Positions 945-39,649 of a stretch of 64,000 bases of DNA are shown piece after piece. The position numbers and the translations under genes are program-made. The notes beneath the pieces were generated by a model. That model was given only the letters and a program-made list of their open reading frames with translations. It had not been told where the DNA came from and did no database searches. Position 1 is the stretch's first letter. Each line of letters starts with the position of its first letter. The stretch comes from Parcubacteria group bacterium Greene0416_36. Its GTDB lineage: Bacteria; Patescibacteriota; Patescibacteriia; VMEV01. The stretch lies in assembly GCA_007375725.1 (NCBI GenBank), contig VMEV01000006.1, positions 6,929 to 70,928 on the forward strand, given 5' to 3'.

Positions 945-2250
945 ATATATGTCGGTCTCTTTTTTAGGGAGGGTGCGGGGAAGAATTGCATCTTGGATGC
1001 ATTTTTTGGAGGCTTTGGCAGCTCGAATCATTTTTTATTATCCCGGAGAGGTCAAAATCATTGGAGTCACCGGAACAGACGGAAAAACGACGACCACTTT
1101 TTTGATCGATGCGGTACTGCGCGGCGCAGGATATAAAACAGCTTTGTGCAATGGTCTGGTGTTTCGAATCGGGAGAGAAGAGTATCCCAATCCAACCGAT
1201 AATACGACGCCGAGAGCTTGGATTATTCATCAATTCATAAAAAAAGCCAAGCGGTCCGGATGCCAGTATATTATTATTGAATCGACTTCGTGGGCTATCC
1301 GCCAATGGCGCCTATGGGGAATTCCCTTTAGCACGGCGGTTTTTACGAATTTGACCCTAGAGCATCAGGATGTTCATGGATCCATGGATAAGTATAAGGA
1401 ATCCAAAGGCCTTTTATTCGCTACGGTGTCCCAGGCTAAAAATTCAACGAGTATTGTCAATAAAGATGATCCCGCTTCTGATTATTTTTTGTCTTTCCCT
1501 GTAGAAAAAAAGCTTTCCTACTCGATTAAGGATTCCTCGGCGGATCTTTGGGCTCATGATATCGTGCTGGAGCCCCATCGTTCTTTATTTAAAGTGTGTT
1601 ATTTGGGACAGGACTACCCTATTGAAATTAACTTGCCCGGAGACTATAATGTGGCTAATTCACTTGCCGCTATTTCGCTTGTTTTAGCGGAAAAAATAGA
1701 TTTTTCAATTCTCCAATCTTCTATTTTGGTGTTCACGGGTGCTCCTGGGCGTTTCGAATATGTCCAGACCGGAAAAGATTATCACGTGGTGGTTGATTTC
1801 GCGCATACACCGGGTGCCTTTCGGAATCTTTTTTCCAATGTCCGGCGCATCTATCCCAAGGCCCGCATCATCGCGGTGTTTGGCGCAGCGGGAGGGAGAG
1901 ATCCGATCAAACGCCCTTTTTTGGGAGAGGAAGCGGCAATGGGGGCGGATTTTTCAATATTGACTTCAGATGATCCACGCTTTGAAGATCCCGAGACTAT
2001 CGCACGTTCGATCATGGGAGGTTTTAGAAAAGCCGGAAAGCATGAAAATCAAGATTTTATATTTATCAAGGACCGTAAAGAGGCCATTCGGAAAGCACTC
2101 TCTATGGCCAGTGCTGGCGATGTGGTTTTGCTTCTGAGCATGGGCGCTTATGAGGCCATGTATGTGGGAGCGGGGAAAGTCCCCTGGAATGATAAAAAGG
2201 CGGTGGAAGAGATTGTGGGGCAGCAAATCCCTCCCCAACCCTCCCTTTGA
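931..2250 (+). CDS. murE: Mur ligase, UDP-N-acetylmuramoyl-tripeptide synthetase (MurE-like)
   Basis: P-loop GVTGTDGKTTTT. C-terminal TSDDPRFEDPETI matches the MurE TSDNPR.EDP motif. True start may be downstream of 931. The 3' end runs into a REP-like element (IPPQPSL). Confidence 0.75.
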   Translation: MIVFKYMSVSFLGRVRGRIASWMHFLEALAARIIFYYPGEVKIIGVTGTDGKTTTTFLIDAVLRGAGYKTALCNGLVFRIGREEYPNPTDNTTPRAWIIHQFIKKAKRSGCQYIIIESTSWAIRQWRLWGIPFSTAVFTNLTLEHQDVHGSMDKYKESKGLLFATVSQAKNSTSIVNKDDPASDYFLSFPVEKKLSYSIKDSSADLWAHDIVLEPHRSLFKVCYLGQDYPIEINLPGDYNVANSLAAISLVLAEKIDFSILQSSILVFTGAPGRFEYVQTGKDYHVVVDFAHTPGAFRNLFSNVRRIYPKARIIAVFGAAGGRDPIKRPFLGEEAAMGADFSILTSDDPRFEDPETIARSIMGGFRKAGKHENQDFIFIKDRKEAIRKALSMASAGDVVLLLSMGAYEAMYVGAGKVPWNDKKAVEEIVGQQIPPQPSL

Positions 2251-2307
2251 CAAGGGAGGGGGTAACTAGCCTCCCCCTTGTCAAAGGGGGACTGAGGGGG
2301 ATTTCTT
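2227..2307. repeat. REP/MITE-like compound hairpin element (family R1), copy 1
   Basis: atccctccccaaccctccctttgacaagggaggg..ctcccccttgtcaaagggggactgagggggattt. Two internal hairpins (CCCTCCCTT-TGACA-AAGGGAGGG and CCCCCTT-GTCA-AAGGGGGA) inside an outer inverted repeat. At least 9 copies in the window. Confidence 0.85.
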
Positions 2308-2390
2308 GCTTTAATTAAAAATGTATTGTAATAACTAACCCAAAAAAATCGCGTTTTTTATTCTATGTCCTAATTCTCGCATTAGGCTTT

Positions 2391-5447: not shown

Positions 5448-6125
5448 ATGAAGATTTTCGTCGTCATTCCCGCTTACAATGAAGAGACGAGAATCCGAAC
5501 CGTGATTGCGTCTCTTTTGTCGTTTCCTTATGAAATTGTCGTGGTCAATGATGGATCGAAGGATCGTACTTTGGCAGAACTTCAAGGTTTGGGCGGGGTG
5601 CATGTACTCTCCCATAGTATCAATCGCGGACAGGGAGCGGCACTCTCAACCGGGACCGTTTATGCCCTCAGGAATGGAGCGGATATTATTGTCCATTTCG
5701 ATGCGGACGGCCAGCATCAGGGCCATGAAATAAGAGAAATGGTGGATCTGCTTTTCAGGGGAAATCAAGATATTGTTTTGGGGTCTCGTTTTCTGGGTAA
5801 AAAAGCAAATATGCCCTTGCACCGAAAAATCGTGCTCAAGGCCGGATTGATTTTTATTTATTTTGTTTCCGGACTCAAACTGACGGACTCTCAAAACGGG
5901 TTTCGTGTGATGACTCGGGAAGCAGCCCATAAAATCACGATTACACAAGATAGAATGGGTCATGCCAATGAAATTATGGATGAGATTGGAAGTCATCATC
6001 TGAAATATGCCGAAGCGCCAATTGAGGTTATTTATGATGAATATTCTCTCCGAAAAGGCCAGAGTTCTTGGAATTTCATCCGCCTCGGCTTCGGTACTCT
6101 GTGGATGAAATGGACTAAGAAATAA
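5448..6125 (+). CDS. Glycosyltransferase family 2 (DPM1/GtrB-like polyprenol-phosphate glycosyltransferase)
   Basis: IPAYNEE...VVVNDGSKDRT and the DAD motif (FDADGQH). 225 aa. Confidence 0.8.
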   Translation: MKIFVVIPAYNEETRIRTVIASLLSFPYEIVVVNDGSKDRTLAELQGLGGVHVLSHSINRGQGAALSTGTVYALRNGADIIVHFDADGQHQGHEIREMVDLLFRGNQDIVLGSRFLGKKANMPLHRKIVLKAGLIFIYFVSGLKLTDSQNGFRVMTREAAHKITITQDRMGHANEIMDEIGSHHLKYAEAPIEVIYDEYSLRKGQSSWNFIRLGFGTLWMKWTKK

Positions 6126-6136
6126 ATAAAGAGGCT

Positions 6137-6215
6137 TTAGGCATTAGGCCATTAGCTTATTAAAAACAACCGTGGCTGTTTTCTAAGAAGCTAATTCCTA
6201 ATAGCCTAATGCCTA
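6137..6215. repeat. Palindromic intergenic element (family R2: GGCATTAGGC..TTAGCTTATTA / TAAGCTAATGCCTAATAGCCTAATGCC), copy 1
   Basis: Imperfect ~80-bp inverted repeat. Similar copies at 13108-13200 and 20612-20655. Confidence 0.75.
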
Positions 6216-10008: not shown

Positions 10009-11157
10009 ATGAAGATTTTTGGATACAAAAAAATAGGGGGCATCATAATAATCCTTGTGTGTCTGGCCATTTGGAATGCGCGGGATTTCTTGAGAATTTC
10101 ATGGCATCAAGCAACTTATAAAGGCGGTTTCGAGCATATCAAAATTGGGGTGGAGAAAGATTTTGCCAATGTTGAATCTTTTTCAAAATTCGTGGCTGCC
10201 TCGGGTCTCGAGGGGGCGCGTTCGTTTATTTTTGGAGACCGCGGAGAAATATATGTTACGGATTCGGCCGCGGGGAAGATATGGGTCCTTCGGGATATGG
10301 ATCGGGATCTTATTTTTGAGTCGCGACAAGTATTTGCGGAGAATTTTGTGGCTCCGGAAGCGATAGTCTCCATTGATGGGAAAATTTATGTAGGGGATAA
10401 ATCTTCTGGAAAGACCTTGGTTTTTAAAATCACCGACGTCGACGGTGATTTTAAGGCTGATCAGGTTTTGCCTCTGGAGCTGGGTTTATCTCCTTTGGTG
10501 GAAGTTAGTTTTTTGTCGTGGCTCCCTTCTCGAAAAATATTTTATGTCGGGACCGTATCTCGAGCAAAGGATGATTCTCCTAAAATCGGACAAATTCTCC
10601 GCTTTGATCTGGATGGCCGTACCTTTGGACAAATCCTTACCACTCCGATTTTATTGGGATCCAATAACGGATTCAGTACCCCGGTAGCTATGGTCGAACA
10701 TCCACATACCGGAGACCTGATTGTCTTGGACCGTTCGTCAGGCCGAGAGGAAGAGCTTAATATGTTATTTGAGAATCGAGATTATGGTGCTCCGAAATGT
10801 TTTGGCCGGGATTGGGAGAATCTCTGTCCCGACAGTATCGGCAGTTTGTATGAATTCCCATTGGATATGGGTATTTCTTCCGCGGTGCTCTATACCGGAA
10901 CCCGTTTTCCGGAGGAGTTCGGAAATAATATTTTGATGGTGTCTATTGGGGTGAGTTCGGGTGATCCCAGCCTTTCTAAAAATATCATCCGTTTGAATCT
11001 AGTTCCCTTCAATGCCTCTTATGATGTGCGGCCATCCGTCTTTGCTACCGGATTCAGTCAGCCTACCGATATTGAGGTGGGGGGCGAGGGGGATATTTAT
11101 GTACTGGATGCCGAGGAAGGAGAAATTTATAGGATTGGGGTGAATTATAGGAAATAA
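10009..11157 (+). CDS. Membrane-anchored beta-propeller-like protein (NHL/SMP-30-like repeats), function unknown
   Basis: N-terminal TM helix. Repeated IYV(T/G)D..G.I.V blades (IYVTDSAAGKIWVL, IYVGDKSSGKTLVF, IYVLDAEEGEIYRI). Confidence 0.45.
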   Translation: MKIFGYKKIGGIIIILVCLAIWNARDFLRISWHQATYKGGFEHIKIGVEKDFANVESFSKFVAASGLEGARSFIFGDRGEIYVTDSAAGKIWVLRDMDRDLIFESRQVFAENFVAPEAIVSIDGKIYVGDKSSGKTLVFKITDVDGDFKADQVLPLELGLSPLVEVSFLSWLPSRKIFYVGTVSRAKDDSPKIGQILRFDLDGRTFGQILTTPILLGSNNGFSTPVAMVEHPHTGDLIVLDRSSGREEELNMLFENRDYGAPKCFGRDWENLCPDSIGSLYEFPLDMGISSAVLYTGTRFPEEFGNNILMVSIGVSSGDPSLSKNIIRLNLVPFNASYDVRPSVFATGFSQPTDIEVGGEGDIYVLDAEEGEIYRIGVNYRK

Positions 11158-11180
11158 TGGAATCATGTTGAATGCAAAAA

Positions 11181-11222
11181 GTAACGTAGGGATGCAGCAT
11201 GCTACATCCCTACGTTACTTTT
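11181..11222. terminator. Bidirectional rho-independent terminator hairpin
   Basis: gtaacgtagggatgcagcatgctacatccctacgttac followed by a T-run, between convergent genes. Confidence 0.7.
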
Positions 11223-11226
11223 TGTT

Positions 11227-11682
11227 CTACTCAATTTTCAACTCCGGATGTCGTGACTTAAAATCCATGAGATCCTGTCTTCCCAAAGCAATGATATCGA
11301 AAGCAACGATATGATCGGAGGGCCGGTAGTCGCTTTTGTTTTCGATTCTGCGGAGGGTCTTTCGAAACGGGCTGCCTTCGGTTTTGATCGTTACCGTTAC
11401 CATGGATTTGTCTATTTCTCTAAGAGCCTGCTCGAGCGTATCATTGACATCGATGAATCGTTTTTTTCCGTTTTCTTCAATATAATAAATGCGTCGAAGC
11501 TCGACCGGAGAATCAGAATTCTCGGCGAATATCTGCTCGATTTTATCTCCCGACACCTCGGTCTCGAAGGAAACTTGTGGAAGAAAAAAACGGTCGATGA
11601 ACATGTATAATGTTCCGGCGACAACGAAAATAGATAAAAATAAAAGGGTCAATAGTATTGGGATTTCTTTTTCTTCGGACAT
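11227..11682 (-). CDS. Hypothetical membrane-anchored protein
   Basis: 151 aa with an N-terminal TM helix. No recognisable domain. Confidence 0.4.
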   Translation of the reverse strand: MSEEKEIPILLTLLFLSIFVVAGTLYMFIDRFFLPQVSFETEVSGDKIEQIFAENSDSPVELRRIYYIEENGKKRFIDVNDTLEQALREIDKSMVTVTIKTEGSPFRKTLRRIENKSDYRPSDHIVAFDIIALGRQDLMDFKSRHPELKIE

Positions 11683-11770
11683 ACCTCCTAATTAGATTTT
11701 TGATAAAAATGCATTCCCTTTATAATCTGTCTGCGGAAAAAAAACAAGGTGTTTTTTCCACACAATCATT

Positions 11771-11802
11771 TTGATACGATAAAATCTTACTGTTACAATG
11801 GT
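11771..11802 (+). promoter_or_regulatory. Sigma70-like promoter (TTGATA-17-TACAAT, extended -10 TGTTACAATGG)
   Basis: Upstream of ndh. The same ctgttacaatgg.gag.atatta block recurs at 22049-22072 upstream of tkt. Confidence 0.5.
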
Positions 11803-11826
11803 GAGGATATTAAAACTTAGTTCATT

Positions 11827-13125
11827 ATGAATTCCAAACAAAGAATTGTGATTGCCGGGGCGGGTTTTGGGGGGACTTATACCTATGCCCATCTCCATAA
11901 ATATTTTCATGGCCGCCGAGACGTGGAACTGGTGATTATCAACAAGAATAATTATTTTATTTTCACGCCCCTCCTTCACGAGGTTGCCACTGGAGGAGTG
12001 GAGCCTTCCAATATCGTTGAGCCTCTGCGAAAAGTCTGCGGATGCTGTCTCCATGAATTCCATCTGGGGCAAATTGATAAAATTGATTTGGCCGCTAAGG
12101 AAGTTTGGATGGCTAATGAATCTTGCCGCCGTATTCCTTATGATCAGCTTGTTTTAGCCTTAGGAGCCACGACGGCTTATTACGGAACTCCGGGGGTGCC
12201 GGAGTGTGTATTTACTCTCAAAGACCTGGATGATGCCATTCGTATCAAAAATAACCTGATTCATTCCATAGAAGAAGCATATCATTTTCATGACTCGACG
12301 AAAGCAAAAAACAGGCTTCGATTTGTCATTGTGGGCGGAGGGGCAACCGGGGTGGAACTGGCCGCAGAACTGGCGGACTTTTGTTATGAAACTTTCTCTG
12401 CCTACTATCCTCAAGATTTAATTTCCAAAATCGAAATCATTCTTCTGTCAAAAGCAGATAGCCTTTTGGCTTCTTTTTCTCCCCATTTTCGTGAAATAGC
12501 TCATAAAATGTTACTACAAAAAGGGGTCAAAGTGCGCTTGAATGCGGGCGTTGTCCGGGTAGATTCTGATTCGATCGAATTGGATAATGGAGAAAAAATA
12601 GAAACACGAACCGTTATATGGGTCGCGGGTATAGTACCCTCAAAGTGTGATTTTATTTCGAATAAAGAAGTTCTTTTGGATCGTTCGGGCCGCATTGAGG
12701 TCAATGAATATCTGCAGATGAAGGATTATGCTGAGGTTTATGTATTGGGTGATATGGCGTGTTTCAAAAATCCTGGGGACACAAAAGTCGTGCCGGCTTT
12801 GGCTCAGGTGGCCACCAAACAATCAAAAATTGTGGCTTCCAATATCATTGCTTCGATAGACAATAAAACATATCGGCCCTTTTATTATCGTTCCTCGGGT
12901 TCTCTCCTTTCTTTAGGGCGCTGGCTCGCGGTTGCAGAAATAGGTTCTTTCCGATGGGGGGGACATTTGGCGTGGTGGATGTGGAGAACGGTTTATTTAT
13001 CGAAATTATTGTCCTGGAGCAAAAAAATGTATGTGGCGGTGGATTGGACTCTCAATTTATTTTCCCATCGCGATATTTCAGAAATTGGAGGGGGTGGGGG
13101 GAAAAAAACAGGCATTAGGCGTTAG
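11827..13125 (+). CDS. ndh: Type II NADH:quinone oxidoreductase (NDH-2)
   Basis: Two Rossmann motifs: IVIAGAGFGG and FVIVGGGATGVELAAELAD. C-terminal membrane-anchoring segment. Confidence 0.8.
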   Translation: MNSKQRIVIAGAGFGGTYTYAHLHKYFHGRRDVELVIINKNNYFIFTPLLHEVATGGVEPSNIVEPLRKVCGCCLHEFHLGQIDKIDLAAKEVWMANESCRRIPYDQLVLALGATTAYYGTPGVPECVFTLKDLDDAIRIKNNLIHSIEEAYHFHDSTKAKNRLRFVIVGGGATGVELAAELADFCYETFSAYYPQDLISKIEIILLSKADSLLASFSPHFREIAHKMLLQKGVKVRLNAGVVRVDSDSIELDNGEKIETRTVIWVAGIVPSKCDFISNKEVLLDRSGRIEVNEYLQMKDYAEVYVLGDMACFKNPGDTKVVPALAQVATKQSKIVASNIIASIDNKTYRPFYYRSSGSLLSLGRWLAVAEIGSFRWGGHLAWWMWRTVYLSKLLSWSKKMYVAVDWTLNLFSHRDISEIGGGGGKKTGIRR

Positions 13126-13200
13126 GTCATTAGCTTATTAGGAACAAGACCCAACTAGGGCTGTTCCCTAAAAAGCTAATGCCTAATAGCCTAATGCCTC
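13108..13200. repeat. Palindromic intergenic element family R2, copy 2
   Basis: ggcattaggcgttaggtcattagcttattagg...cctaaaaagctaatgcctaatagcctaatgcc. Confidence 0.75.
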
Positions 13201-13208
13201 TTGTTTAG

Positions 13209-18052: not shown

Positions 18053-18733
18053 TTACCGGGGAGGGATGAGGTACTGGGTCCAGTTTTCTGTATTTAAATC
18101 CGCGATTTTGACGGCTTGGTCGAGTCGGATGCCCTTGGTTTCAGTGCGGATAAGGCCCGATAAATAGGCCCCGGCACCTAGTTTTTGTCCCAGATCATGG
18201 GCGATCGAACGGATGTAGGTGCCGGAGGAACAGCGGATGCGGAGCTGGGCGATAGGCCAAGTATAAGACAAGAGCTCAAGCTCCTTGATTTCAATGCCTA
18301 CGGGGGCGAGTTCCACGGGTTTATTCTGCCGGGCCAGATCATAGGCTTTTTGGCCTTTGATTTTTTTGGCCGAGAAAATAGGCGGCATTTGTTGCTGGGC
18401 GCCCAAAAATGTTTTGAGGGTTTCTTCGAGTTGGGTTTTTGAAAGGGGTTGTGGCAGAGGTTGAGTCGGCACAACTATACCCTCCGCATCATAAGTATTC
18501 GAAACCCCGCCGAAAATGATGCTGGCGATATACTCTTTGTCGGATGCCAGAAAGTCTCCCAGATGTTTGGTGGCCTCCCGTCCCACCCCCACGATCAAAA
18601 GACCCTCGGCAAGAGGGTCTAATGTGCCGGCATGTCCTATCTTCTTCGTCCCCGTGATCTTCTTGATCGCATGTATCACTCCATAGGACGTGGGGCCGGA
18701 GGGTTTGTGGATGAATAAAAATCCGCTTGGCAT
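18053..18733 (-). CDS. truB: tRNA pseudouridine(55) synthase
   Basis: FLFIHKPSGPTSYGVIHAIKKITGTKKIGHAGTLDPLAEGLL is the TruB catalytic Asp motif. Confidence 0.85.
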   Translation of the reverse strand: MPSGFLFIHKPSGPTSYGVIHAIKKITGTKKIGHAGTLDPLAEGLLIVGVGREATKHLGDFLASDKEYIASIIFGGVSNTYDAEGIVVPTQPLPQPLSKTQLEETLKTFLGAQQQMPPIFSAKKIKGQKAYDLARQNKPVELAPVGIEIKELELLSYTWPIAQLRIRCSSGTYIRSIAHDLGQKLGAGAYLSGLIRTETKGIRLDQAVKIADLNTENWTQYLIPPR

Positions 18734-18749
18734 ATTTATAAACCCCCCT

Positions 18750-18822
18750 TAGTCCCCCCTTAACAGGGGGGAAACAACTGCCCCCTCCCTTGTTAAGGGG
18801 AGGGTTGGGGTGGGGTTTGTTG
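18750..18822. repeat. REP/MITE-like element family R1, copy 2 (inverted orientation, TTAACA variant)
   Basis: ccccccttagtccccccttaacaggggggaaacaactgccccctcccttgttaaggggagggttggggtggggtttgttg. Confidence 0.8.
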
Positions 18823-18830
18823 CTTTGTTA

Positions 18831-20609: not shown

Positions 20610-20611
20610 AG

Positions 20612-20655
20612 GGGGTTAGGCTTTAGGCTGTTAGGCATTAGCTTATTAGGCTAAG
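20612..20655. repeat. Palindromic element family R2, partial copy 3
   Basis: ggttaggctttaggctgttaggcattagcttattaggctaagg. Confidence 0.6.
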
Positions 20656-21972: not shown

Positions 21973-22083
21973 ATTTTTTCTCTAAAATAGCAGATTTTAA
22001 AGAAAAAATAAAATTTTACGGGCTTCTATTTTTTTGATTCCAAAAAATTCTGTTACAATGGAGAGAATATTATTCTCTCGACA

Positions 22084-22127
22084 CGAGATTGCTTCAGTCA
22101 CGCTAAAGCGCGTGACTTCGCAATGAC
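22084..22127. repeat. Hairpin repeat family R3 (CGAGATTGCTTC...GTCACGC..GCGTGAC..TTCGCAATGAC)
   Basis: Related copies at 23085-23130 and 24496-24617. Followed by the conserved leader cctgaatcct..cctaaatc before the ATG. Confidence 0.7.
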
Positions 22128-22171
22128 CGTTGTTCTCCTAGATCCTGAATCCTTATTCCTAAATCCTAGAT

Positions 22172-23017: not shown

Positions 23018-23084
23018 GCAGCAAATGAAGAATGAAAAATTAAAAATTAAGAATGAAACAAAGGATAAGCTGAAAGAAATGTCA

Positions 23085-23130
23085 TTGCGAGAATATGCAT
23101 TTTAGCAGAAGCGAAGCAATCTCGTATCGA
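23085..23130. repeat. Hairpin repeat family R3, copy 2
   Basis: tgtcattgcgagaatatgcattttagcagaagcgaagcaatctcgt. Confidence 0.6.
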
Positions 23131-23465
23131 AGGGGAGGATTTTATGTATATTTTCTTGAAATAAAAAAGACCATCGCGATTTTGCTAGGTCCTATAAAAC
23201 CAATGAAAATGAGTTAATGTTCTGTTTTTCAATGGTTGGTTGTTTGTTTTTTTCCTTGTTCTTCTTCCTTTTCTTTTATCCTTGTGGCTTCTCTTTTATC
23301 AGCATCTTGTCCTATTATTATAAGTAGTCGTTGGATCTCTTCTAATTCCGTTATAAGAATTATTCCAATCGTTATAATTGCACACAAAATTGCTATTTCC
23401 ATTAAATATTCCTTTAAAATATATAAAAATTAGAACCACATTATTACTATCATTTCAGAATATAT

Positions 23466-24488: not shown

Positions 24489-24495
24489 AGAGTAT

Positions 24496-24617
24496 TGTCA
24501 TTGCGAAGCCCCGCGTTTTAGCGGGGATGAAGCAATCTCGTGTCGGGTCCCTCTCTCTATTTCAATACGAGATTGCTTCGCCTCCGCTAAGGCGCGGATT
24601 CTCGCAATGACACGTAT
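24496..24617. repeat. Hairpin repeat family R3, full palindromic dimer
   Basis: gtcattgcgaagccccgcgttttagcggggatgaagcaatctcgtgtcg...acgagattgcttcgcctccgctaaggcgcggattctcgcaatgac. Confidence 0.75.
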
Positions 24618-24648: not shown

Positions 24649-25830
24649 ATGATCGGACCCCTTCTCACCTTCATGCGAATCCATTTCTCCCAGGCGACTC
24701 GGGTGGAACTTTTGGAATCGATCAAAGCATCACTCCGAAGCCCAAGAAGGCTTCCTTTGTTTATTACCACTCCTAATCCGGAAATCGTACTTTTGTCTCT
24801 GGCAAATTCGGAGTATCGAAAGGTCCTTAATTCTTCGGATTATTCGATCGCGGACGGGTTTGGGTTACAGCTGGCGGCGCGAGTATTTGGATTTCCTCTG
24901 GCTGCTCGTATTGCGGGAGTAGATTTGATGGCGGATCTTTGCAATCTCGCCTCTTCATCGGGCTACCGAGTTGCTCTACTGGGCGCAGGAAAGGGTGTGG
25001 CCGCCAGGGCCAAAGAGAAATTGGAGGCCAAGTTTCCAACCTTGGAAATCGTCTACGCTGACCCCGGAATGCCCGCGGAGTCTTTTAGTTTCGATTCGCC
25101 CGAATGCATACAAGCAATCAACCAAACCCAGGCTGATTTTTTATTTTGCGCGTTCGGCGCGCCCAAACAGGAGCTCTGGATCCACAAAAATTTGTCAAAA
25201 TTGAACGTGAAACTGGCCATGGGAGTGGGGGGATCGCTCGATTGTATTTCTGGACACAAAAAAAGAGCGCCTCTTCTTATGAGAAAGATGGGCTTTGAAT
25301 GGTTATTTCGTTTTTTTTATGAGCCCACACGCGCCTTGCGGATCTGGAATGCCGTAGTTGTTTTCCCTATGACTGTAATGCTATGGAAAGCGAGGATTTT
25401 ATTTCAGTATCGTAAAAATGTCGTGGCTCTGATTTTAGATCAAGATAATCGCATTCTGATGGTCAATGCCGCACGCAATCAGGATATCAAATGGCAGTTT
25501 CCTCAAGGGGGCATTGATAGAGGAGAGGATGCCACGGTCGCGGTGATGCGCGAGATGAGAGAGGAGTTGGGCATTGCTCAACTTGAAATCATTCGGCATG
25601 TCCCACACTATAGTTCTTATATCTGGCCCCCTCAATACCAGATTATTTATGGCTATAAAGGCCAGCTCCAAGATCTGTTTATCCTACGATTTACCGGACA
25701 GGATTCGGATTTTAATCTCGAATACGATCATGAGCTCTCCAGCTGGAAATGGATGACAAAATCGGACGTTCTTGTTAATGTAGACCCGCTGCGCCGCTCG
25801 AGCGTGGAGAAAGCGTTTAGTTTTTTATAA
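24649..25830 (+). CDS. WecB/TagA/CpsF-family glycosyltransferase (GT26) fused to C-terminal NUDIX hydrolase domain
   Basis: N-terminal ...SIADGFGLQLAAR...LFCAFGAPKQELWI.. matches GT26. C-terminal Nudix box GGIDRGEDATVAVMREMREELGI. The 3' end is followed by an R1 element. Confidence 0.7.
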   Translation: MIGPLLTFMRIHFSQATRVELLESIKASLRSPRRLPLFITTPNPEIVLLSLANSEYRKVLNSSDYSIADGFGLQLAARVFGFPLAARIAGVDLMADLCNLASSSGYRVALLGAGKGVAARAKEKLEAKFPTLEIVYADPGMPAESFSFDSPECIQAINQTQADFLFCAFGAPKQELWIHKNLSKLNVKLAMGVGGSLDCISGHKKRAPLLMRKMGFEWLFRFFYEPTRALRIWNAVVVFPMTVMLWKARILFQYRKNVVALILDQDNRILMVNAARNQDIKWQFPQGGIDRGEDATVAVMREMREELGIAQLEIIRHVPHYSSYIWPPQYQIIYGYKGQLQDLFILRFTGQDSDFNLEYDHELSSWKWMTKSDVLVNVDPLRRSSVEKAFSFL

Positions 25831-25834
25831 AAAA

Positions 25835-25912
25835 AATCCCTCCCCAACCCTCCCCTTGACAAGGGAGGGCGTTGCTTCCCCCTTGTCAAAGGGGGACTGA
25901 GGGGGATTTGTT
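25835..25912. repeat. REP/MITE-like element family R1, copy 3
   Basis: atccctccccaaccctccccttgacaagggagggcgttgcttcccccttgtcaaagggggactgagggggatttgttg. Confidence 0.85.
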
Positions 25913-25937
25913 GTTTCATTCCTAATGCCTAATTTCT

Positions 25938-27434
25938 ATGATTCGAACTCGTTCCGCACCCTCTCCCACTGGATTCATGCATGTGGGAAATCTCCGCACT
26001 TCTCTTTATTGCTATTTATTCGCAAAAAAAAATAAGGGCCAATATCTCCTGCGCATAGAAGATACGGATCAGACCCGTTTTATGCCGGGAGCGACCGAGG
26101 ATATTTACGCATCTCTGCGATGGGCCGGACTTCTCTATGATGAAGGACCGGATGTCGGAGGCCCCAATGGCCCGTATATACAATCACAAAGATCAGAAAT
26201 TTATAATGCTGAGGTTTCTAAACTGCTCAACGAGGGCAAGGCTTATCGTTGTTTTTGTTCTCCCCAGAGACTGGAAGCCATGAGAGAAGAGCAGCAGGCC
26301 AAGGGAGAGGCGTCGCGATATGATGGAAAGTGCCTGAGTTTATCAAAAGAGGAGCTAATTACTCTCGAGGCTTCCAAGGCTCCGCATGTCATTCGTTTCC
26401 GAATGTCGGAAAAAGAATACAAATACATGGATATTATGCGAGGTGAATTGGCCTTTCCAGTCGGGTCTGCGGATGATTTTGTGCTCATCAAAAGCGATGG
26501 GTTTCCGGTCTATCACTTCGCCAATATTGTCGATGATCACTACATGAAAATCAGCCATGTGATCCGAGGCGAAGAATGGCTTTCTTCATTGCCCAAACAT
26601 CTGGCTTTATATGAAGCTTTCGGATGGAATCATCCTGAGTTTATTCATTTGCCTCTCCTTTTATCCAAGACTAAGAAGAAGCTGTCCAAGCGCGACGGCG
26701 ATGTTTCGGTACGGGACTACATTGCCAAGGGATATTTGCCCGAAGCCCTTCTGAATTTTATTTTACTTTTGGGCTGGAATCCTGGAACGGACAAAGAATT
26801 ATTTACGAAAGAGGAGATGATCGAGGCTTTTTCGTTTGAACGCCTCAATAAATCCGGAGCCGTATTTGATTTGGAGAAACTGGACTGGATGAATAGCCAC
26901 TACATTCGGGGGAAAAATATTTCCGAATTATTTAGTTTGTCTTTGCCCTATTTTGAATCTGCTGGGCTGATTGTAAAAACCGAAGATCCCTCTCTTTGGA
27001 AAACCGCGGCCGGACGCAATATTTCAAGGAATTATTTGGAAAAGATCGTGGGCATTGAAAAAGAGCGCGTCAAAAAACTTTCAGATTTCGCCGATACTGA
27101 CAGGGTGGGGTTTTTCTTTGCCGACTCTTTGGTATACGAGAAGGATCTGTTATTCTGGAAGAAGATGGAGACGGCTCAGGTAGTTCAAAATCTCACACAG
27201 GCCAAAATTTTGCTCGAAAAAACTTTGGAAACGGAATTCACGAAAGAGCATCTCCGCGATACAATCATGCGCTGGACCGCCGAGACGGGCATCAAAAATG
27301 GCGAGATGCTTTGGCCGCTCCGTGTGGCTCTCACCGGCATGAAAGCGTCTCCCGACCCGTTCGAGGTCGCTGATGTATTAGATAAGCCGATGTGTCTGGC
27401 GAGACTGGATCAAGCATTGGAGAAATTGACATAA
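25938..27434 (+). CDS. gltX: Glutamyl-tRNA synthetase
   Basis: RSAPSPTGFMHVGNLRTSLY (HIGH) and KLSKRDG (KMSKS). 498 aa. Confidence 0.9.
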   Translation: MIRTRSAPSPTGFMHVGNLRTSLYCYLFAKKNKGQYLLRIEDTDQTRFMPGATEDIYASLRWAGLLYDEGPDVGGPNGPYIQSQRSEIYNAEVSKLLNEGKAYRCFCSPQRLEAMREEQQAKGEASRYDGKCLSLSKEELITLEASKAPHVIRFRMSEKEYKYMDIMRGELAFPVGSADDFVLIKSDGFPVYHFANIVDDHYMKISHVIRGEEWLSSLPKHLALYEAFGWNHPEFIHLPLLLSKTKKKLSKRDGDVSVRDYIAKGYLPEALLNFILLLGWNPGTDKELFTKEEMIEAFSFERLNKSGAVFDLEKLDWMNSHYIRGKNISELFSLSLPYFESAGLIVKTEDPSLWKTAAGRNISRNYLEKIVGIEKERVKKLSDFADTDRVGFFFADSLVYEKDLLFWKKMETAQVVQNLTQAKILLEKTLETEFTKEHLRDTIMRWTAETGIKNGEMLWPLRVALTGMKASPDPFEVADVLDKPMCLARLDQALEKLT

Positions 27435-33896: not shown

Positions 33897-34109
33897 GAGG
33901 GGGCGTTGTCATCCCCGCGAAAGCGGGGATCCAGGCCCTGCAGTAGTAAAATGCTACAAAAGTATTTTAGACTAATTGGGTATGTAGAGAATTTAAAATG
34001 TATTTCAATTACTACAGAATCTGTACGACCGATCATTTATTATTTACATGTTCTGTGGTCTGGATCCCCGATCCGCCCTACGGGGCTCTCGGGGATGACG
34101 TGATAATCT

Positions 34110-34487
34110 ATGACTCTCGAATTCACAAAACAACTCACACAAAATCCCGCTAATATTCTTCGAAAATGCGGGTATTTCGCGAATTTTGATCCGGTGACGG
34201 GCCACAATAGCTTTATCCGGAGACTCTCCGGCGGCCGTTATCCCCGGTTTCATATTTATATTCTGAAAGAAGGGGTCGGCTTTTTACAGCTCAATTTGCA
34301 TCTGGACATGAAAAAAGAAAGTTACGGCGATCAAACCGCCCATTCGGGAGAATATGATACCGAGGTTGTTGATACCGAGGCGACTCGCATTGGGAAAATG
34401 TTTACGTCACATTATGTGAGGCACTCTGATTCTGCCGTTCAAATTCCGCAAAAAAAGAGTTTTTGGAGGAGGATTTTTGGATTATAA
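34110..34487 (+). CDS. Hypothetical protein (125 aa)
   Basis: No recognisable family. 3' end followed by an R1 element. Confidence 0.35.
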   Translation: MTLEFTKQLTQNPANILRKCGYFANFDPVTGHNSFIRRLSGGRYPRFHIYILKEGVGFLQLNLHLDMKKESYGDQTAHSGEYDTEVVDTEATRIGKMFTSHYVRHSDSAVQIPQKKSFWRRIFGL

Positions 34488-34493
34488 AACAGC

Positions 34494-34574
34494 AAATCCC
34501 ACCCCAGCCCTCCCTTTGACAAGGGAGGGAGCAGCTTCCCCCTTGTCAAAGGGGGATTGAGGGGGATTTGTTGC
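34494..34574. repeat. REP/MITE-like element family R1, copy 4
   Basis: atcccaccccagccctccctttgacaagggagggagcagcttcccccttgtcaaagggggattgagggggatttgttg. Confidence 0.85.
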
Positions 34575-34581
34575 CAAATCT

Positions 34582-36204
34582 ATGAAAACAAAATTCATTT
34601 TCATCGTAGGCGGAGTGATGTCGGGGGTGGGGAAGGGCGTGACGGCGGCTTCGATTGGCAGGATTCTCACGAATAAGGGATATTCCGTGAGCGCGGTCAA
34701 AATCGATCCGTACATCAATGTGGACGCGGGGACCATGAACCCGGTCGAACATGGCGAGGTGTTTGTCACCCAAGACGGGGACGAAACCGACCAGGATATT
34801 GGAAACTATGAGCGATTTTTGGGGAAGGATATTCTTTCATCCAACTACATGACCACGGGTCGCGTGTATCTGTCCGTGATTGAGAAGGAGAGGAAACTCG
34901 CCTACCGAGGCAAATGCGTCGAGGTCGTGCCTCACATTCCGGAAGAAGTGATTCTGAGGATCAAAACCGCGGTCAAAGACAGCGGAGCGGAGATCATGAT
35001 CGTCGAAATCGGCGGGACGGTCGGCGAATACCAAAATATTCTCTTCCTCGAAGCCGCCCGCATGATGCATCTCCGCGCCAAAAAAGACGTGCAGTTCATC
35101 TTGGTAAGCTATTTGCCTATTCCGGGCAATCTCGGCGAGATGAAGACCAAGCCCACTCAATACGCCATCCGAACCCTGAACTCCGCCGGAATCCAGCCGG
35201 ATTTTGTGGTCTGCCGCGCGGAAAAAGACCTCGATATTCCGCGTCGCCACAAACTCGAACTTTTCGGCAATATGGCTTCGGGCAGTGTGATTTCTGCTCC
35301 AGATGTCGCCAGTATCTACGATGTCCCGGGGGTTCTGGAAGATCAGCATATGGGCAATAAACTCCTCCGTAATTTTGGCATTCGCCCGCGCAAAAATAAC
35401 TGGACCAGCTGGAAAAAACTCACTCACAATATTCATAATCCCGGCAAACCGGTCCGCATCGCCATGGTCGGGAAATATTTTGGGAGCGGCGATTTTGTCC
35501 TGCCAGATGCCTATATTTCCGTGATCGAATCGGTCAAACATGCAGCATGGAGCCAGAATTTGAAACCGGAATTGGCTTGGATCGATTCGGAAAAGTTTGA
35601 AAACGGCCAAGCACCTAAAGATATTTTGAAAGACTTCGACGGTGTCATTGTGCCTGGAGGATTCGGCAAGAGGGGAGTGGAAGGTAAAATCAAAGCCATC
35701 GAGTATTGCCGTACGCATAAAGTGCCGTATTTCGGCCTTTGCTACGGCATGCAGCTCGCCGCCGTAGAATTCGCCCGACATGTCCTAGGCCATAAAAAAG
35801 CCCATACCACGGAAATCGACCCCTCGACTCCCGACCCCCTCATCTACATCATCCCGAATAAGATATTCGAGGAAACAAAAAAATATGGCGGGACCATGAG
35901 GCTCGGCGCCTATCCCTGCCAAATAGATAAAAATTCTAAGGCCTTCGAGTATTACGGATCGGAAATGATCTCTGAACGACATCGCCACCGATACGAATTC
36001 AACAATGATTACAAAGACGCATTCAATAAAAAGGGATTTAAAACTGTAGGTATTTGTCCCGACAACGGTCTTGTTGAAATACTTGAGCTTGAGGGCCACC
36101 CGTTCTTCATCGGCACCCAATTTCATCCGGAGTTTAAGTCGCGGCCGCTGGATCCACATCCCTTGTTTGTGGGGTTTGTGAGGGCGGCGGCAACAGTCAA
36201 TTAA
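34582..36204 (+). CDS. pyrG: CTP synthase
   Basis: FIFIVGGVMSGVGKGVTAASIG N-terminus and glutamine amidotransferase motifs (GLCYGMQ). Confidence 0.9.
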   Translation: MKTKFIFIVGGVMSGVGKGVTAASIGRILTNKGYSVSAVKIDPYINVDAGTMNPVEHGEVFVTQDGDETDQDIGNYERFLGKDILSSNYMTTGRVYLSVIEKERKLAYRGKCVEVVPHIPEEVILRIKTAVKDSGAEIMIVEIGGTVGEYQNILFLEAARMMHLRAKKDVQFILVSYLPIPGNLGEMKTKPTQYAIRTLNSAGIQPDFVVCRAEKDLDIPRRHKLELFGNMASGSVISAPDVASIYDVPGVLEDQHMGNKLLRNFGIRPRKNNWTSWKKLTHNIHNPGKPVRIAMVGKYFGSGDFVLPDAYISVIESVKHAAWSQNLKPELAWIDSEKFENGQAPKDILKDFDGVIVPGGFGKRGVEGKIKAIEYCRTHKVPYFGLCYGMQLAAVEFARHVLGHKKAHTTEIDPSTPDPLIYIIPNKIFEETKKYGGTMRLGAYPCQIDKNSKAFEYYGSEMISERHRHRYEFNNDYKDAFNKKGFKTVGICPDNGLVEILELEGHPFFIGTQFHPEFKSRPLDPHPLFVGFVRAAATVN

Positions 36205-36235
36205 AAATTAAGAATGAAGAATTAAAAATGAGCAA

Positions 36236-36267
36236 CAAAAAACATGACTTTTCCAAGTCATGTTTTT
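36236..36267. terminator. Bidirectional terminator hairpin between pyrG and rpmA
   Basis: aaaaaacatgacttttccaagtcatgtttttt. Confidence 0.65.
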
Positions 36268-36285
36268 TGTTTGAATTCAGAAGAT

Positions 36286-36573
36286 TTACTTCTTCACCTG
36301 CTCGTCTACATGGACGAACACACCTTCTTTCAAGGCGCCCGAGAATGATCGGACTTGTTTCTTGTTGAAGCGGACAACTCCGGGGACCAAGGCAAAAAGA
36401 GTATCGTCTTTGCCGATTCCCACGTTTTTGCCGGGTCGATATTTGGTTCCGCGCTGGCGGGCCAAGATATTGCCGGCGGCTGCGATTTCACCCGCGAATA
36501 ATTTGATTCCAAGGCGTTGGCCGGGCGAATTTCGGCCCAACTCGGTACTACCGCCTGACTTTTTAGTAGCCAT
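36286..36573 (-). CDS. rpmA: 50S ribosomal protein L27
   Basis: [54 protein letters not shown]. Confidence 0.85.
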
Positions 36574-36777
36574 AGGTTTGCTTTATAAAATTCTTGCGGC
36601 CCTGCCGTGTTTCTGGGGCAGAGAGGCTTATTCAGCCAAAGAATTTGATAGTGAGGTTAAAAAACAGTGTTATATTAGAAAATATTCGAGGGTTTGTCAA
36701 TTTTTTGGCATGCAACTGATTTTTTTGACATATATCAAAAAGATAGCTATTATATATCAATAATTATCCATTATCTT

Positions 36778-37053
36778 ATGACCACACAAGTTATCTTTAG
36801 AATCGATGAAAAGACAAAAGAACAGGCCATGAAAAAGGCACATCATTCTGGTTTGTCTTTTGCCACCGTGCTCAAACTCGCTACCTATGCTTTTGTAGAA
36901 GACAAATTCACGATCAGCCTCAATCAAGTAGAGCCCTTCAATTTACAAACACGGAAGAAACTCAATAAAATCCAAAAAGATCTTTCTTTGCGTAAAAATT
37001 TATCGCCACGGTTCAAATCTGCCAAAGATGCTATGGGATATCTCATGAAATAG
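36778..37053 (+). CDS. RelB/DinJ-family antitoxin (ribbon-helix-helix)
   Basis: TQVIFRIDEKTKEQAMKKAHHSGLSFATVLKLA resembles DinJ. Immediately upstream of a RelE-like gene. Confidence 0.6.
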   Translation: MTTQVIFRIDEKTKEQAMKKAHHSGLSFATVLKLATYAFVEDKFTISLNQVEPFNLQTRKKLNKIQKDLSLRKNLSPRFKSAKDAMGYLMK

Positions 37054-37057
37054 ATTT

Positions 37058-37315
37058 ATGGATGTTATTTTTCATCGGGATTTTAAAAAACAATTCAAAA
37101 AATTGCCAGTGAAAATTCAAAAGAAATTTGAAGAACGTTTGAACTTATTTTTAAATGAACCTGATAATTCAACTCTCAATAACCATTCGGTGGAAAAAGC
37201 ATACCCGAAATCGAGGAGTATCAATATAACCGGAGATTATCGAGCTATTTATCAAAAAGACGAAGACCTGATTTGTTTTATGATCATCGGCACACACTCT
37301 GAATTATATTCATGA
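37058..37315 (+). CDS. RelE/YafQ/ParE-superfamily toxin
   Basis: 85 aa. ...ITGDYRAIYQKDEDLICFMIIGTHSELY. 4-bp gap after the antitoxin. Confidence 0.6.
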   Translation: MDVIFHRDFKKQFKKLPVKIQKKFEERLNLFLNEPDNSTLNNHSVEKAYPKSRSINITGDYRAIYQKDEDLICFMIIGTHSELYS

Positions 37316-37322
37316 AACGTGT

Positions 37323-38369
37323 TTATTTCCTCCCAATCTCCGTGATCAACTGTCCGCATGCCCCTGCGATGTCGTCGCCCATGGTCTTACGGACCGTGAC
37401 GGGGATGTCGGCGGATTCGAGGCGGTCGACCATTTTTTGGATGCGAACAGGCTCGGAGCGGCGGAAAGGGGAGTCGGTGAAGTTGTAGGGGATGAGGTTC
37501 ACACGGACACGACCGACGGACTGGACGAAGCGGAGGAGTTTCTCGATGTCGGCATCGCGGTCATTGTGGCCGGAGAGGAGGACGTATTCGAAGGTGAGAT
37601 GATGACTGCGGTTGCCGAGAATTTCGAGGTATCGGCGACCCCAGTCTTGGAGCTTATTTAGAAATTCTGTTCCTCCGGACGGCACGATTTCTCCGCGCAC
37701 ATCTTTGTCCGCGCTATGAAGAGAGACGGCGAGGCGGACATGGGGCCAGGTCGTGTCCGCGAGGAGCTTCTCGAGCGGGGCCATGAGTCCCACGGTCGAA
37801 ACCGTGATTTTGGTCTCGCCCAGATCCGTGTATTCGAGCCATGTTTTGATGGCAGACTTCACATTTTCGTAATTGGCCATGGGTTCGCCCATGCCCATGA
37901 ACACGACATTGCTGATTCTCTGGGGAAGAGCCGGATGTTCTCTTAGAAATTTTACCCAAAATCGATATTGATCCACAATTTCATCCTCCGATAGATTTCG
38001 GGAAAGCCCCATTTTCCCGGTGGCGCAAAAAGTGCATTTCATGGCGCATCCGATCTGCGAAGAAACACAGATAGTCCATTGATCTCGGGCGTTTTCCATG
38101 AGCACGCTCTCAATCAGGTGGCCGTCGAAGGTGCAAAGCGCCGCCTTATAAGTGTCTTTTTTCTTGCTTTCCATCACCTTTTTGCAGTCGAGGGATATCC
38201 ATGGGATTTTATCAGCTACCACCGCTCGGATCGGCGCCGGCAGTACCGTCACATCCTTCCACCCTCCATAAGCAACATTAAAAACCGCATCCTCCAATTG
38301 TTTGGCGCGGAAGGGTTTTTCGGTGGGGAAGAGGGAGGCGAATTGTTCGGCGCGGGTTGATGGGGTCAT
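37323..38369 (-). CDS. rlmN: 23S rRNA/tRNA (adenine-C2)-methyltransferase, radical SAM (RlmN/Cfr family)
   Basis: CVSSQIGCAMKCTFCATG radical-SAM CxxxCxxC and MGMGEP..N motif. Confidence 0.85.
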   Translation of the reverse strand: MTPSTRAEQFASLFPTEKPFRAKQLEDAVFNVAYGGWKDVTVLPAPIRAVVADKIPWISLDCKKVMESKKKDTYKAALCTFDGHLIESVLMENARDQWTICVSSQIGCAMKCTFCATGKMGLSRNLSEDEIVDQYRFWVKFLREHPALPQRISNVVFMGMGEPMANYENVKSAIKTWLEYTDLGETKITVSTVGLMAPLEKLLADTTWPHVRLAVSLHSADKDVRGEIVPSGGTEFLNKLQDWGRRYLEILGNRSHHLTFEYVLLSGHNDRDADIEKLLRFVQSVGRVRVNLIPYNFTDSPFRRSEPVRIQKMVDRLESADIPVTVRKTMGDDIAGACGQLITEIGRK

Positions 38370-38611
38370 AATGATTCGAATATTTCAATATAATAGGGAA
38401 AATCGTACCCAAAAACAAGCCACTCTTAAATTTGACAATAGTCTTAATAATATGGTATATAGACTTCAGTTATTTCGACCGTCTAAACTATAGATAAAAC
38501 AGTTATAAATCCCGCATAAGTGCCATATAGAAATAGAATAAAAAAGGCTATTTTTGGGGAAATTATGCGTGGAATTTAACTGGTTTATCTATAAATAAGA
38601 AAGATAGAAAA

Positions 38612-38935
38612 ATGAAAAATTGGAAGACAACTGAAAAAAAAGCGTTCTTGAAAAAAATACAGACATTCGCAGAAAAAGCCCTATCCCAAGCTACGAAAGA
38701 GATGAGCTTCGAGGAGGCAATGAAGGCTTTGGAAAGCGGTGAGAAAAAAAAGGAGCAGACTTTTCTTGACTTGTTTTCTGCTTCTGCCGTAAACAAAATC
38801 TCCCCTCCCACAAAACCCGAGGACTCGGAATTTCTCCAAGTGGTCGGTAAAGATTTCTTGGTTCCCGCATGCGATGGCAAGGCAACGATCATCGGATCGA
38901 GCGGGGTGTTCCATTACATTGATCCCAATTTTTGA
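38612..38935 (+). CDS. Small hypothetical protein, paralog A (inverted duplicate)
   Basis: MKNWKTTEKKAFLKKIQ...PACDGKATIIGSSGVFHYIDPNF. 60-70% identical to the convergent gene 38889-39257. Confidence 0.5.
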   Translation: MKNWKTTEKKAFLKKIQTFAEKALSQATKEMSFEEAMKALESGEKKKEQTFLDLFSASAVNKISPPTKPEDSEFLQVVGKDFLVPACDGKATIIGSSGVFHYIDPNF

Positions 38936-39257: not shown

Positions 39258-39434
39258 TTTTGATCCTTTTTTTATTGCTTTTAACCAAAATCAGCCACAA
39301 ACAATATGGCAGAAATAATTTTGATTTTTTAAAAATGAAGCAGAGTATATTTACCACACTATTGCATATATTGTCAAGAATAAATTATAAATAAAGCCAA
39401 TCTTAGTATTTTTCTGTAAAATTCCAATAAAATG

Positions 39435-39463
39435 TTGACGAAATTTCGATTTCACCCTAGTAT
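39435..39463 (+). promoter_or_regulatory. Sigma70-like promoter TTGACG-17-TAGTAT, followed by a ~190-nt structured leader (candidate L10 leader) upstream of rplJ
   Basis: Consensus -35/-10 hexamers with 17-bp spacing. Leader 39464-39649 is GC-structured, as expected for L10(L12)4 autoregulation. Confidence 0.55.
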
Positions 39464-39649
39464 TTGCTCATACCGTAGACAGCAGGCTTGGTGCGCCGAA
39501 ACCCGAAAGGGTGAAGGCGACGAGTACCATATAAGTCCTGCCGAGGCATATTCATATCATTTTCGCATAATTGCGGGGAGAAATATGGATTTACCCCATT
39601 TTTTAAAAGTCGATTACGGTATGGTTATAAACCATATTTTTTTATTTCT

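Follow-up and report, generated by a model that had tools for sequence, protein, structure and literature searches.

A dispersed palindromic repeat built from two inverted BoxC-type modules in a Parcubacteria genome

Introduction

The 64,000-nucleotide stretch of Parcubacteria group bacterium Greene0416_36 analysed here (contig VMEV01000006.1, positions 6,929 to 70,928; called the window throughout) carries repeated copies of a dispersed palindromic element, named R1, which measures 84–90 bp per full copy. Genomes of the candidate phyla radiation (CPR)/Patescibacteria are small and tightly packed, so that a repeat that makes up ~1–1.5% of the sequenced DNA and fills the greater part of many spacers between genes is unexpected in such a host. 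This raises the question of whether R1 is a mobile sequence, a signal in RNA or a structure in DNA. The analysis reported below shows that R1 belongs to a known, functionally unexplained structural class, that of the BoxC/PIT/TM repeats, whose host range it extends to a new clade and within which its density is unusually high. Its copies have multiplied in this genome to ~1 per 6 kb, having landed, either way round, in narrow intergenic gaps or within the final codons of genes. On balance, we lean towards the view that R1 is a non-autonomous dispersed mobile palindrome that behaves like REPINs, which are doublets of repetitive extragenic palindromic (REP) sequences, or like MITEs (miniature transposable elements with inverted repeats), and that it is made of two inverted modules of the BoxC/PIT type.

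Results

A dispersed family with common ends

The original prediction, made from the sequence of the window, held that at least nine copies of a REP- or MITE-like element occur there in two orientations. An nhmmer profile built from the copies recovered the same nine sites, on both strands, as seven full copies, one expanded copy and one half copy, and found no match elsewhere in the window. The core 18-mer CCCCCTTGTCAAAGGGGG, with up to three mismatches, occurs 13 times against 0.06 expected. One extra copy lies just past the window, between uvrB and uvrA (L046 17109–17195). Further contigs were reached by searching a protein collection with the translated open frames of the element, which returned three spurious or tail-bearing proteins whose contigs hold more copies. 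There are four full copies and one arm in the 17.5 kb of contig L059, annotated as metagenome-assembled genome (MAG) Gr01-1014_18, and one full copy and one arm on contigs L062/L065, whose valyl-tRNA synthetase (ValRS) is 100% identical to that of Gr01-1014_18. Contig L060, which comes from the same metagenome and carries a 16S rRNA gene, has four full copies, one truncated and one expanded copy in 20 kb. The total is thus 23 copies in ~138 kb, counting L060, which may or may not belong to the same organism. Singlets, that is, single arms, lie at 41709 in the window, at L059 10122 and at L065 7024.

An ENA contig of 119 kb and an NCBI contig of 78.7 kb each contain the window sequence, whose gene content is CPR-like (a short AlaRS, Mur ligases, glycosyltransferases, toxin–antitoxin pairs, ribosomal proteins). 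Its MutY (42172–43365) matches at 100% identity a protein from the Parcubacteria group bacterium Gr01-1014_18 MAG; the next-best homologue reaches 42%, and the nearest ValRS relatives, from Candidatus Falkowbacteria, share 58–59% identity. A cyanobacterial origin, which the style of the repeat had first suggested, was rejected on account of the 100% matches of MutY and ValRS to Gr01-1014_18 proteins. Horizontal transfer of R1 between the MAGs 'Greene1014' and 'Gr01-1014_18' was considered and rejected, as the identical ValRS makes them one population, from which no transfer can be inferred. In independent short-read (Logan) assemblies, 6 of 16 contig ends fall inside R1 copies, which occupy ~1% of the sequence, and such breaks are the usual signature of a genome-wide repeat. 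R1 thus breaks short-read assemblies, and it creates spurious open reading frames (ORFs) as well.

All 17 full copies with exact ends begin and finish alike (CAACAAATCCC...GGGATTTGTTG), often extended to AGCAAC.../...GTTGCT, while their flanks are mutually unrelated and show no target-site duplication. The terminal inverted repeat is A/T-rich and 8–13 nt long (CAACAAAT...ATTTGTTG). Across 16 copies the mean identity is 88%, and nearly all variation sits in the connectors, the central spacer and a single T/A triad position of the outer block. With copies on several other contigs and unrelated flanks, the predicted dispersed family is well founded. The idea of a local duplication or an assembly artefact limited to one contig, for which the only point is the clustering within one window, can practically be dismissed in view of these other contigs, the independent NCBI, ENA and Logan assemblies and the unrelated flanks. 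There is also a contrast in copy number with other genomes: a stricter two-hairpin pattern, which matches seven full copies in the window alone, has one exact match in 185,579 GTDB species-representative genomes, in a different Patescibacteria MAG (L001).

Three-block arms and a triplex-like code

Each R1 arm consists of three blocks, namely an outer third block that is separated by a 3-nt connector from the two halves of a G/C-rich hairpin. In the reference copy (2221–2308, plus strand, CAGCAAATCCCTCCCCAACCCTCCCTTTGACAAGGGAGGGGGTAACTAGCCTCCCCCTTGTCAAAGGGGGACTGAGGGGGATTTCTTG), the left terminal repeat CAGCAAAT (2221–2228) overlaps by two bases the third block of the left arm, ATCCCTCCC (2227–2235), which is followed by the connector CAA (2236–2238), the pyrimidine arm CCCTCCCTT (2239–2247), the loop TGAC (2248–2251) and the purine arm AAGGGAGGG (2252–2260). 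After a spacer (2261–2271), the right arm continues with TCCCCCTT (2272–2279), the loop GTCA (2280–2283), AAGGGGGA (2284–2291), the connector CTG (2292–2294) and its third block AGGGGGAT (2295–2302), with the terminal repeat extending to 2308. In general form, the left arm reads A-TCCCTCCC, 3-nt connector, CCCTCCCTT, loop TGAC and AAGGGAGGG on the top strand, and the right arm reads A-TCCCCCT, 3 nt, TCCCCCTT, 4 nt and AAGGGGGA on the bottom strand. One arm is of the CCCTCCC type and the other of the CCCCC type in all 17 full copies as well as in the relatives L001, L027, L023 and the viral contig L045. The original prediction described the arms as hairpins and overlooked the mirror-repeat third block.

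A custom finder of three-block units (Y-R-R or Y-Y-R, where Y and R are pyrimidine and purine blocks; stems of 6–15 nt, loops of 1–6 nt, at most one mismatch) returned 17 units in the window and none in 30 dinucleotide shuffles. All 17 are R1 arms, with stems of 8–9 nt, a connector of 3 nt and a hairpin loop of 4–6 nt. Because the stems in the window are nearly symmetric, a mirror repeat cannot be told from a direct repeat there, and relatives with asymmetric stems, taken from 42 loci of a metagenome scan, were used instead. In these, the third block mirrors the hairpin arm and is not a direct repeat of it, as in TCCCCCTCCCTT with AACCCTCCCCCT, CTCTCTCCC with CCCTCTCTC (9/9 positions) or CCTCCCCCT with ACCCCCTCC, and the connector is always 3 nt. 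Over 30 distinct block pairs, the third block has C opposite G-C pairs in 179 of 196 cases, and opposite internal A-T pairs the counts are 41 for T, 11 for A and 2 for C. Read on the G-rich strand, these tallies follow the antiparallel purine-triplex code, in which G faces G-C and either A or T faces A-T. The T-A-T triad is found in all three left-arm blocks and in none of the three right-arm blocks, which favours co-evolution within each arm. Singlets of other genomes retain the outer block in the absence of a partner arm, so that the conserved module is the three-block unit.

Such a code makes a role in DNA structure a serious rival to mobility: a cruciform or an intrastrand triplex formed by R1 would pause replication, bind nucleoid or topology proteins, or promote recombination and local variability, and roles of this kind have been proposed for the TM motifs of E. 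coli. REP sequences and the mosaic elements built from them (BIMEs) bind gyrase and IHF, which provides a precedent. The third blocks follow the triplex code down to the T/A alternation opposite A-T, and partnerless singlets keep them. In vitro, moreover, a stable triplex is formed by the E. coli motif TM_ECO, whose loci show unusual variability (PMC4666352). However, Holder et al. detected a triplex neither in double-stranded DNA nor by footprinting in vivo (PMC4666352). The assemblies of the present population are identical around the copies, with no instability visible, and the sharp common termini and the invariant hairpin loops are left unexplained by a structural role. We therefore consider a host function of this kind, serious as it is, to be quite improbable.

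Folding and the case for an RNA element

As RNA, R1 is predicted to form a single long hairpin from either strand, with energies between -41 and -62 kcal/mol and z-scores between -3.9 and -8.4; with DNA parameters, the fold energy is ~-23 kcal/mol. These values were obtained with ViennaRNA, which models duplexes only. The original prediction had envisaged two hairpins nested in an outer stem. The minimum-energy fold is instead the single long hairpin, although the nested fold is a mere 2.5 kcal/mol weaker (-47.4 versus -49.9), and in an alignment of 21 elements both folds are paired to much the same extent, 93.3% and 93.7%. Of the two hairpin loops, TTGACAA and TTGTCAA, neither varies and each is the complement of the other, with a joint change from G-C to A-U in three sequences, which constitute the TTAACA variant noticed at the outset. 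Some stem pairs have likewise changed on both sides, as had been predicted. Pairing from arm to arm is favoured because the complementary loops change together and because variation is restricted to the connectors, the spacer and the T/A position. Both levels of structure, within the arm and between the arms, seem to matter.

Folds of this stability invite the explanation that R1 is an RNA element selected by the host, in which the long hairpin with its A-tract and U-rich tract acts as a bidirectional terminator or attenuator, a 3' stabiliser or an RNase III site, its spread being secondary. This would fit the adjacency of 22 of the 23 copies to at least one gene 3' end, the energies and z-scores just given, the UUUGUUG that follows the stem in both orientations, and the combination of conserved stems with variable loops. 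R1 has the G/C-rich stem of a rho-independent terminator, with the tail UUUGUUG pairing to the A-tract in the predicted fold. Yet a consensus terminator scan of 34001–54000 called other hairpins and none of the five R1 copies there. The fold of the sense strand is the weaker one in most copies: positions that are G·U pairs on the antisense strand are A·C mismatches on the sense strand. Copies also sit within normally co-expressed or very tight gene pairs (rplJ–rplL, uvrB–uvrA, 8 nt before pyrG, 4 nt before truB). A canonical terminator of its own stands 10 nt beyond the related copy on L001, and translation turns four copies into protein tails. An earlier study, cited by PMC4666352, reportedly found neither promoter nor terminator activity in the E. 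coli PIT/BoxC elements. An orientation bias relative to transcription, which looked strong in the window (8 of 9), came to 11 versus 5 with the other contigs and is not significant. At the Rfam gathering score, a tRNA is all that passes in the window, and relaxed E-values add only generic long-hairpin microRNA models. Taken together, these observations make a host-selected RNA element unlikely. The idea that the TTGACA loops provide a promoter was also tried and rejected, as there is no -10 box at the right distance and a promoter scan gave no excess.

Relation to genes and protein tails

No R1 copy falls within the body of a gene: all are intergenic or overlap the 3' end of a gene. The reading frames of four genes continue into copies, which gives them tails of 9–35 residues that are rich in proline and glycine, the native stop having been replaced by the element. 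The Mur-ligase ORF (931–2250) takes nine codons from the reference copy, ending …QQIPPQPSL at a TGA stop in the first loop. The mutY ORF (42172–43365) runs 71 nt into the copy at 43295–43378 (plus strand) and stops at the connector TAA, which adds 23 codons (RINPSPTLPLTREGAVSPLSKGD). This tail begins where the MutY homologues stop. A 575-aa ORF (51542–53269) enters the copy at 53228–53311 (minus strand, opposite in orientation to the flanking genes) for 39 nt, or 13 codons, before a TAG (QQIPLNPPLTRGT), and on L059 a DHFR-like gene traverses one copy completely, gaining 35 residues. The predicted supply of codons to gene ends therefore stands for the Mur ligase, MutY and the 575-aa ORF, and fails for the GT26-NUDIX (WecG-NUDIX) gene, which receives none, its TAA ending at 25830. 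The label 'ArnT-like' given to the 575-aa ORF is unsupported, as the ORF has no Pfam match. For annotators, it matters that R1 alters the C-termini of housekeeping proteins such as MutY, a Mur ligase and a DHFR-like enzyme.

In several spacers R1 leaves room for little else. The copy at 18738–18824 (minus strand), between bipA/typA (stop at 18831) and truB (ATG at 18733), takes up 87 of 97 nt; the uvrB–uvrA copy takes up 87 of 112 nt; and the copy at 34490–34573 (plus strand), which starts 2 nt past the stop of a 125-aa ORF and ends 8 nt ahead of the pyrG start, takes up 84 of 94 nt. The outer G block of the truB-side copy, TAAGGGGGG, precedes the truB start by 9 nt (18733–18760); this block resembles a Shine–Dalgarno sequence, so that the copy may serve as a co-opted ribosome-binding site. 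The copy at 25830–25913 (plus strand) starts with the last base of the WecG-NUDIX TAA, ends 25 nt before gltX and has a degenerate left terminal repeat (AAAAAAAT). The copy at 40198–40284 (plus strand) lies in the rplJ–rplL spacer, 5 nt past the rplJ stop and 41 nt ahead of the rplL start. It had been placed there correctly by the original prediction, which also assumed that an attenuator normally occupies this position. That premise has no basis in established knowledge: the E. coli attenuator is found between rplL and rpoB, while the L10 leader is upstream of rplJ.

The two remaining sites of the window belong to a diverged subfamily, B. The half copy, or singlet arm, at 41709–41753 (plus strand; CCCATCCCC / CCCCTTCCC / GGAAGGGG) lies between convergent genes. 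The expanded copy at 45187–45301 (plus strand; -79.6 kcal/mol) has two inverted L-type arms around ~33 nt of extra sequence.

Signs of insertion and a possible route of spread

Comparison with other genomes gives R1 the appearance of an insertion. In a related contig the rplJ–rplL spacer is ~26 nt and lacks the element, and in other Patescibacteria related copies are placed differently relative to pyrG and rplJ; that of L001, for instance, is downstream of pyrG and not upstream. If mobility is the correct explanation, copying might proceed through a folded single strand (a long hairpin, a cruciform or a triplex) that an enzyme with its gene elsewhere in the genome would recognise. A trans-acting enzyme working on a single-stranded folded intermediate is plausible by analogy with REPIN/RAYT, where RAYTs are the tyrosine transposases associated with REP sequences, and with IS200/IS605. 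The contrast between near-invariant stems and loops and free connectors and spacer would then reflect the requirements of this machinery or of the fold, and R1 would survive only where its insertion is harmless. Once transcribed, a copy could form the long hairpin and may affect the mRNA 3' end, presumably as a side effect and not as the reason for the element.

Several observations weigh against this explanation. No transposase or RAYT (Pfam Y1_Tnp, PF01797) appears in the precomputed gene tables covering ~138 kb. The Logan, ENA and NCBI assemblies of the population, searched for empty sites at strain level, are all identical at the copies, and so give no sign of ongoing movement. As no relative is close enough for a comparison of empty sites (MutY at 42%, ValRS at 58–59%), insertion is inferred and not observed. 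The strong conservation of stems and loops could equally reflect a host function, part of the copy count comes from contig L060, which may be of another organism, and no link of TM_ECO with mobile elements was found (PMC4666352).

A very improbable alternative is that R1 is an uptake signal for imported DNA. CPR bacteria depend on imported DNA and commonly encode competence machinery, the uptake sequences of Neisseria and Haemophilus are often inverted pairs behind genes, and R1 is likewise abundant, found in both orientations and located behind genes. But uptake sequences are 9–12 nt long, occur ~1 per kb and are frequent inside genes, whereas R1 is 84–90 nt long with defined ends, occurs ~1 per 6 kb and never within the body of a gene, and the same architecture recurs in unrelated phyla, including Moraxella plasmids and cyanobacteria.

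Kinship with known repeats

The closest structural relatives of R1 are the BoxC/PIT elements, on which earlier work was reportedly done by Hoyne and Maher. The BoxC/PIT/TM_ECO consensus is CCCTCNCCC-N3-6-GGGNGAGGG-N3-GGGNGAGGG, and TM_ECO has 23 copies in E. coli K-12, all of them intergenic, with inverted pairs at five sites that always combine type A with type B; triplex motifs rich in G/C also abound in cyanobacteria (Holder et al. 2015, PMC4666352). R1 shares with this class the three consecutive G/C-rich blocks of 8–9 nt, a hairpin loop of 3–6 nt, a second loop of 3 nt, and a third block in mirror symmetry to the purine arm, where an A-T pair is faced by A or T. It is likewise multi-copy and intergenic, with inverted pairs of two subtypes that form a long imperfect hairpin. 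In sequence it is a different family, the TM_ECO pattern having no match in the window. The orientation of the modules is reversed as well: our reading of the E. coli hrpB–mrcB pair is Y-R-R3, 16 nt, Y3-Y-R (3 marking the third block), with the third blocks facing inward, whereas R1 is Y3-Y-R..Y-R-R3, with the third blocks outside. Both arrangements, third blocks outside or inside, occur among the metagenome loci. R1 further differs from BoxC in its A/T-rich terminal inverted repeat with sharp ends, its invariant arm-complementary loops, its CPR host and the overlap of its copies with gene 3' ends, and its density is ~1 module per 3 kb, compared with 23 in 4.6 Mb for TM_ECO in E. coli.

In its behaviour, R1 resembles REPINs, the hairpin-forming REP doublets that RAYT tyrosine transposases mobilise (Bertels and Rainey 2011, PMC3116915). 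REPINs number tens to hundreds of copies in extragenic space. Both consist of two inverted short palindromes around a variable spacer that fold into a long hairpin, leave remnant-like singlets, produce no target duplication, are extragenic and concentrate their variation in the loops. In contrast to REPINs, the R1 consensus (CAACAAATCCCTCCCC...) has no GTAG or CGTC tag, the arms carry the mirror-repeat third block, and no RAYT appeared in the gene tables for ~138 kb. R1-type architecture, moreover, is found in several phyla and on plasmids, whereas REPIN–RAYT systems are described as vertically inherited. With MITEs such as Correia/NEMIS, RUP, ERIC/IRU and RU-1/2/3, R1 has in common a length of ~85 bp, the lack of coding capacity, terminal inverted repeats, co-transcribed hairpins and positions beside or in gene ends, where codons are sometimes added (compare PMC2759123). 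Unlike MITEs, R1 has no target-site duplication, no direct repeat of at least 3 nt flanking any of the 19 copies inspected, and it is palindromic as a whole and not just at its termini. No parent insertion sequence with matching ends and no gene bordered by R1 arms was noticed in the sequence examined, although no dedicated search for such a parent was made. An integron attC site was rejected on inspection, since the end motifs misfit RYYYAAC/GTTRRRY and the flanking genes are housekeeping genes and not cassettes.

R1-related elements were found in other metagenomes, on Moraxella and cyanobacterial plasmids and on one viral contig. Phage records gave no match; among viral contigs the first search pattern matched none and the second matched two. 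Doublets of the same architecture lie between narG and narH on Moraxella plasmids: on the plasmid of Moraxella sp. DOX410 (NZ_CP135140.1), the doublet (L063 1501–1570) starts 8 nt past the narG stop in an unusually long narG–narH spacer of 298 nt, and the same doublet is present on three Moraxella osloensis plasmids. Another such doublet is carried by a cyanobacterial plasmid, and further ones occur in contigs that encode multihaem cytochromes or acyl-CoA metabolism and are therefore not from CPR bacteria. In other uncultured bacteria, some of them clearly non-CPR, a three-block unit or a doublet occupies nearly every spacer of the fragment (L018 9033–13141, L014, L025 and L032); in L014, L025 and L032, all singlets are co-oriented with the genes. 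An all-against-all BLAST comparison of 43 metagenome loci revealed no recurrent neighbour gene besides duplicate contigs.

R1 thus links the BoxC/triplex repeats, known from E. coli and cyanobacteria, to an element that has defined ends and behaves like an insertion, and an architecture shared across distant phyla offers a tractable system for studying the spread of these repeats and a possible function of the triplex code. We put forward, as a tentative extension whose truth is doubtful, that BoxC/PIT triplex-code modules in general are no mere structural curiosities but working parts of widespread mobile palindromes, the third block being read by an enzyme or by the fold during single-stranded copying. 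Were this to hold, the present genome, with its burst of copies, discrete termini, two arm types and small gene set, would be the simplest place to find the machinery and thereby to answer a 30-year-old question, the nature of BoxC elements.

Other repeats and peculiarities of the region

R1 shares its surroundings with several other repeats. On contig L060 one R1 copy (10011–10097) lies ~280 nt past the 3' end of the 16S rRNA gene (10380–11861). This copy and the tyrS-side copy on L062/L065 have in common ~55 nt of extra flank, which suggests a composite of R1 and a small AGCCTTTTGAAAA hairpin. An A/T-rich repeat, TTAAAAATTAAGAATGAA, occurs together with its complement at 23023–23065, 36191–36247, 40798–40870, 25910–25940 and 43375–43405; it abuts the right end of the R1 copies at 25830 and 43295, so that different repeat families pile up in the same spacers.

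Three more families of short perfect palindromes start with GTAG or GTAA, examples being TGTAGGGGCACAGCGCGCTGTGCCCCTACA, ACGTAGGGATGCAGCATGCTACATCCCTACGT and AAGTAAGGGCGTATTGCAATACGCCCTTAC; they lie at 43164–43193, 49802–49831 and 50766–50795, at 11177–11222 and 43623–43668, and at 50195–50233, 50582–50620 and 51275–51313. In appearance they are classical REPs with a GTAG tag, which a RAYT would naturally use as substrates if the genome has such an enzyme. A family of ~50 nt with an internal hairpin, GTCATTGCGA...GAAGCAATCTCGT, surrounds the transketolase genes in both orientations (22079–22134, 23074–23131, 24491–24545, 24561–24612). Repeats of CATTAGGC/TTAGGC units are located at 6124–6169, 13102–13206 and 20610–20655; the second of these (13103–13206) is a palindrome with 49-nt arms, inside which the short-read contig L055 ends.

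Between 45670 and 45671, the NCBI assembly (L050 15346–15517) has 172 extra bases inside the gene for a 370-aa GT4 glycosyltransferase; the window has 172 bases fewer, and the gene is thereby frameshifted or truncated to ORF 45671–46330. The difference is either a population variant or an assembly difference. At 38597–39272 there is a nested inverted repeat, with 183-nt arms of 79% complementarity that are 310 nt apart and 129-nt arms that are 3 nt apart, covered by short overlapping ORFs on both strands. Finally, six tandem repeats of 288–294 nt, 63–70% identical, extend over 60318–62063 inside a 1005-aa ORF (59830–62847) that has no Pfam match.

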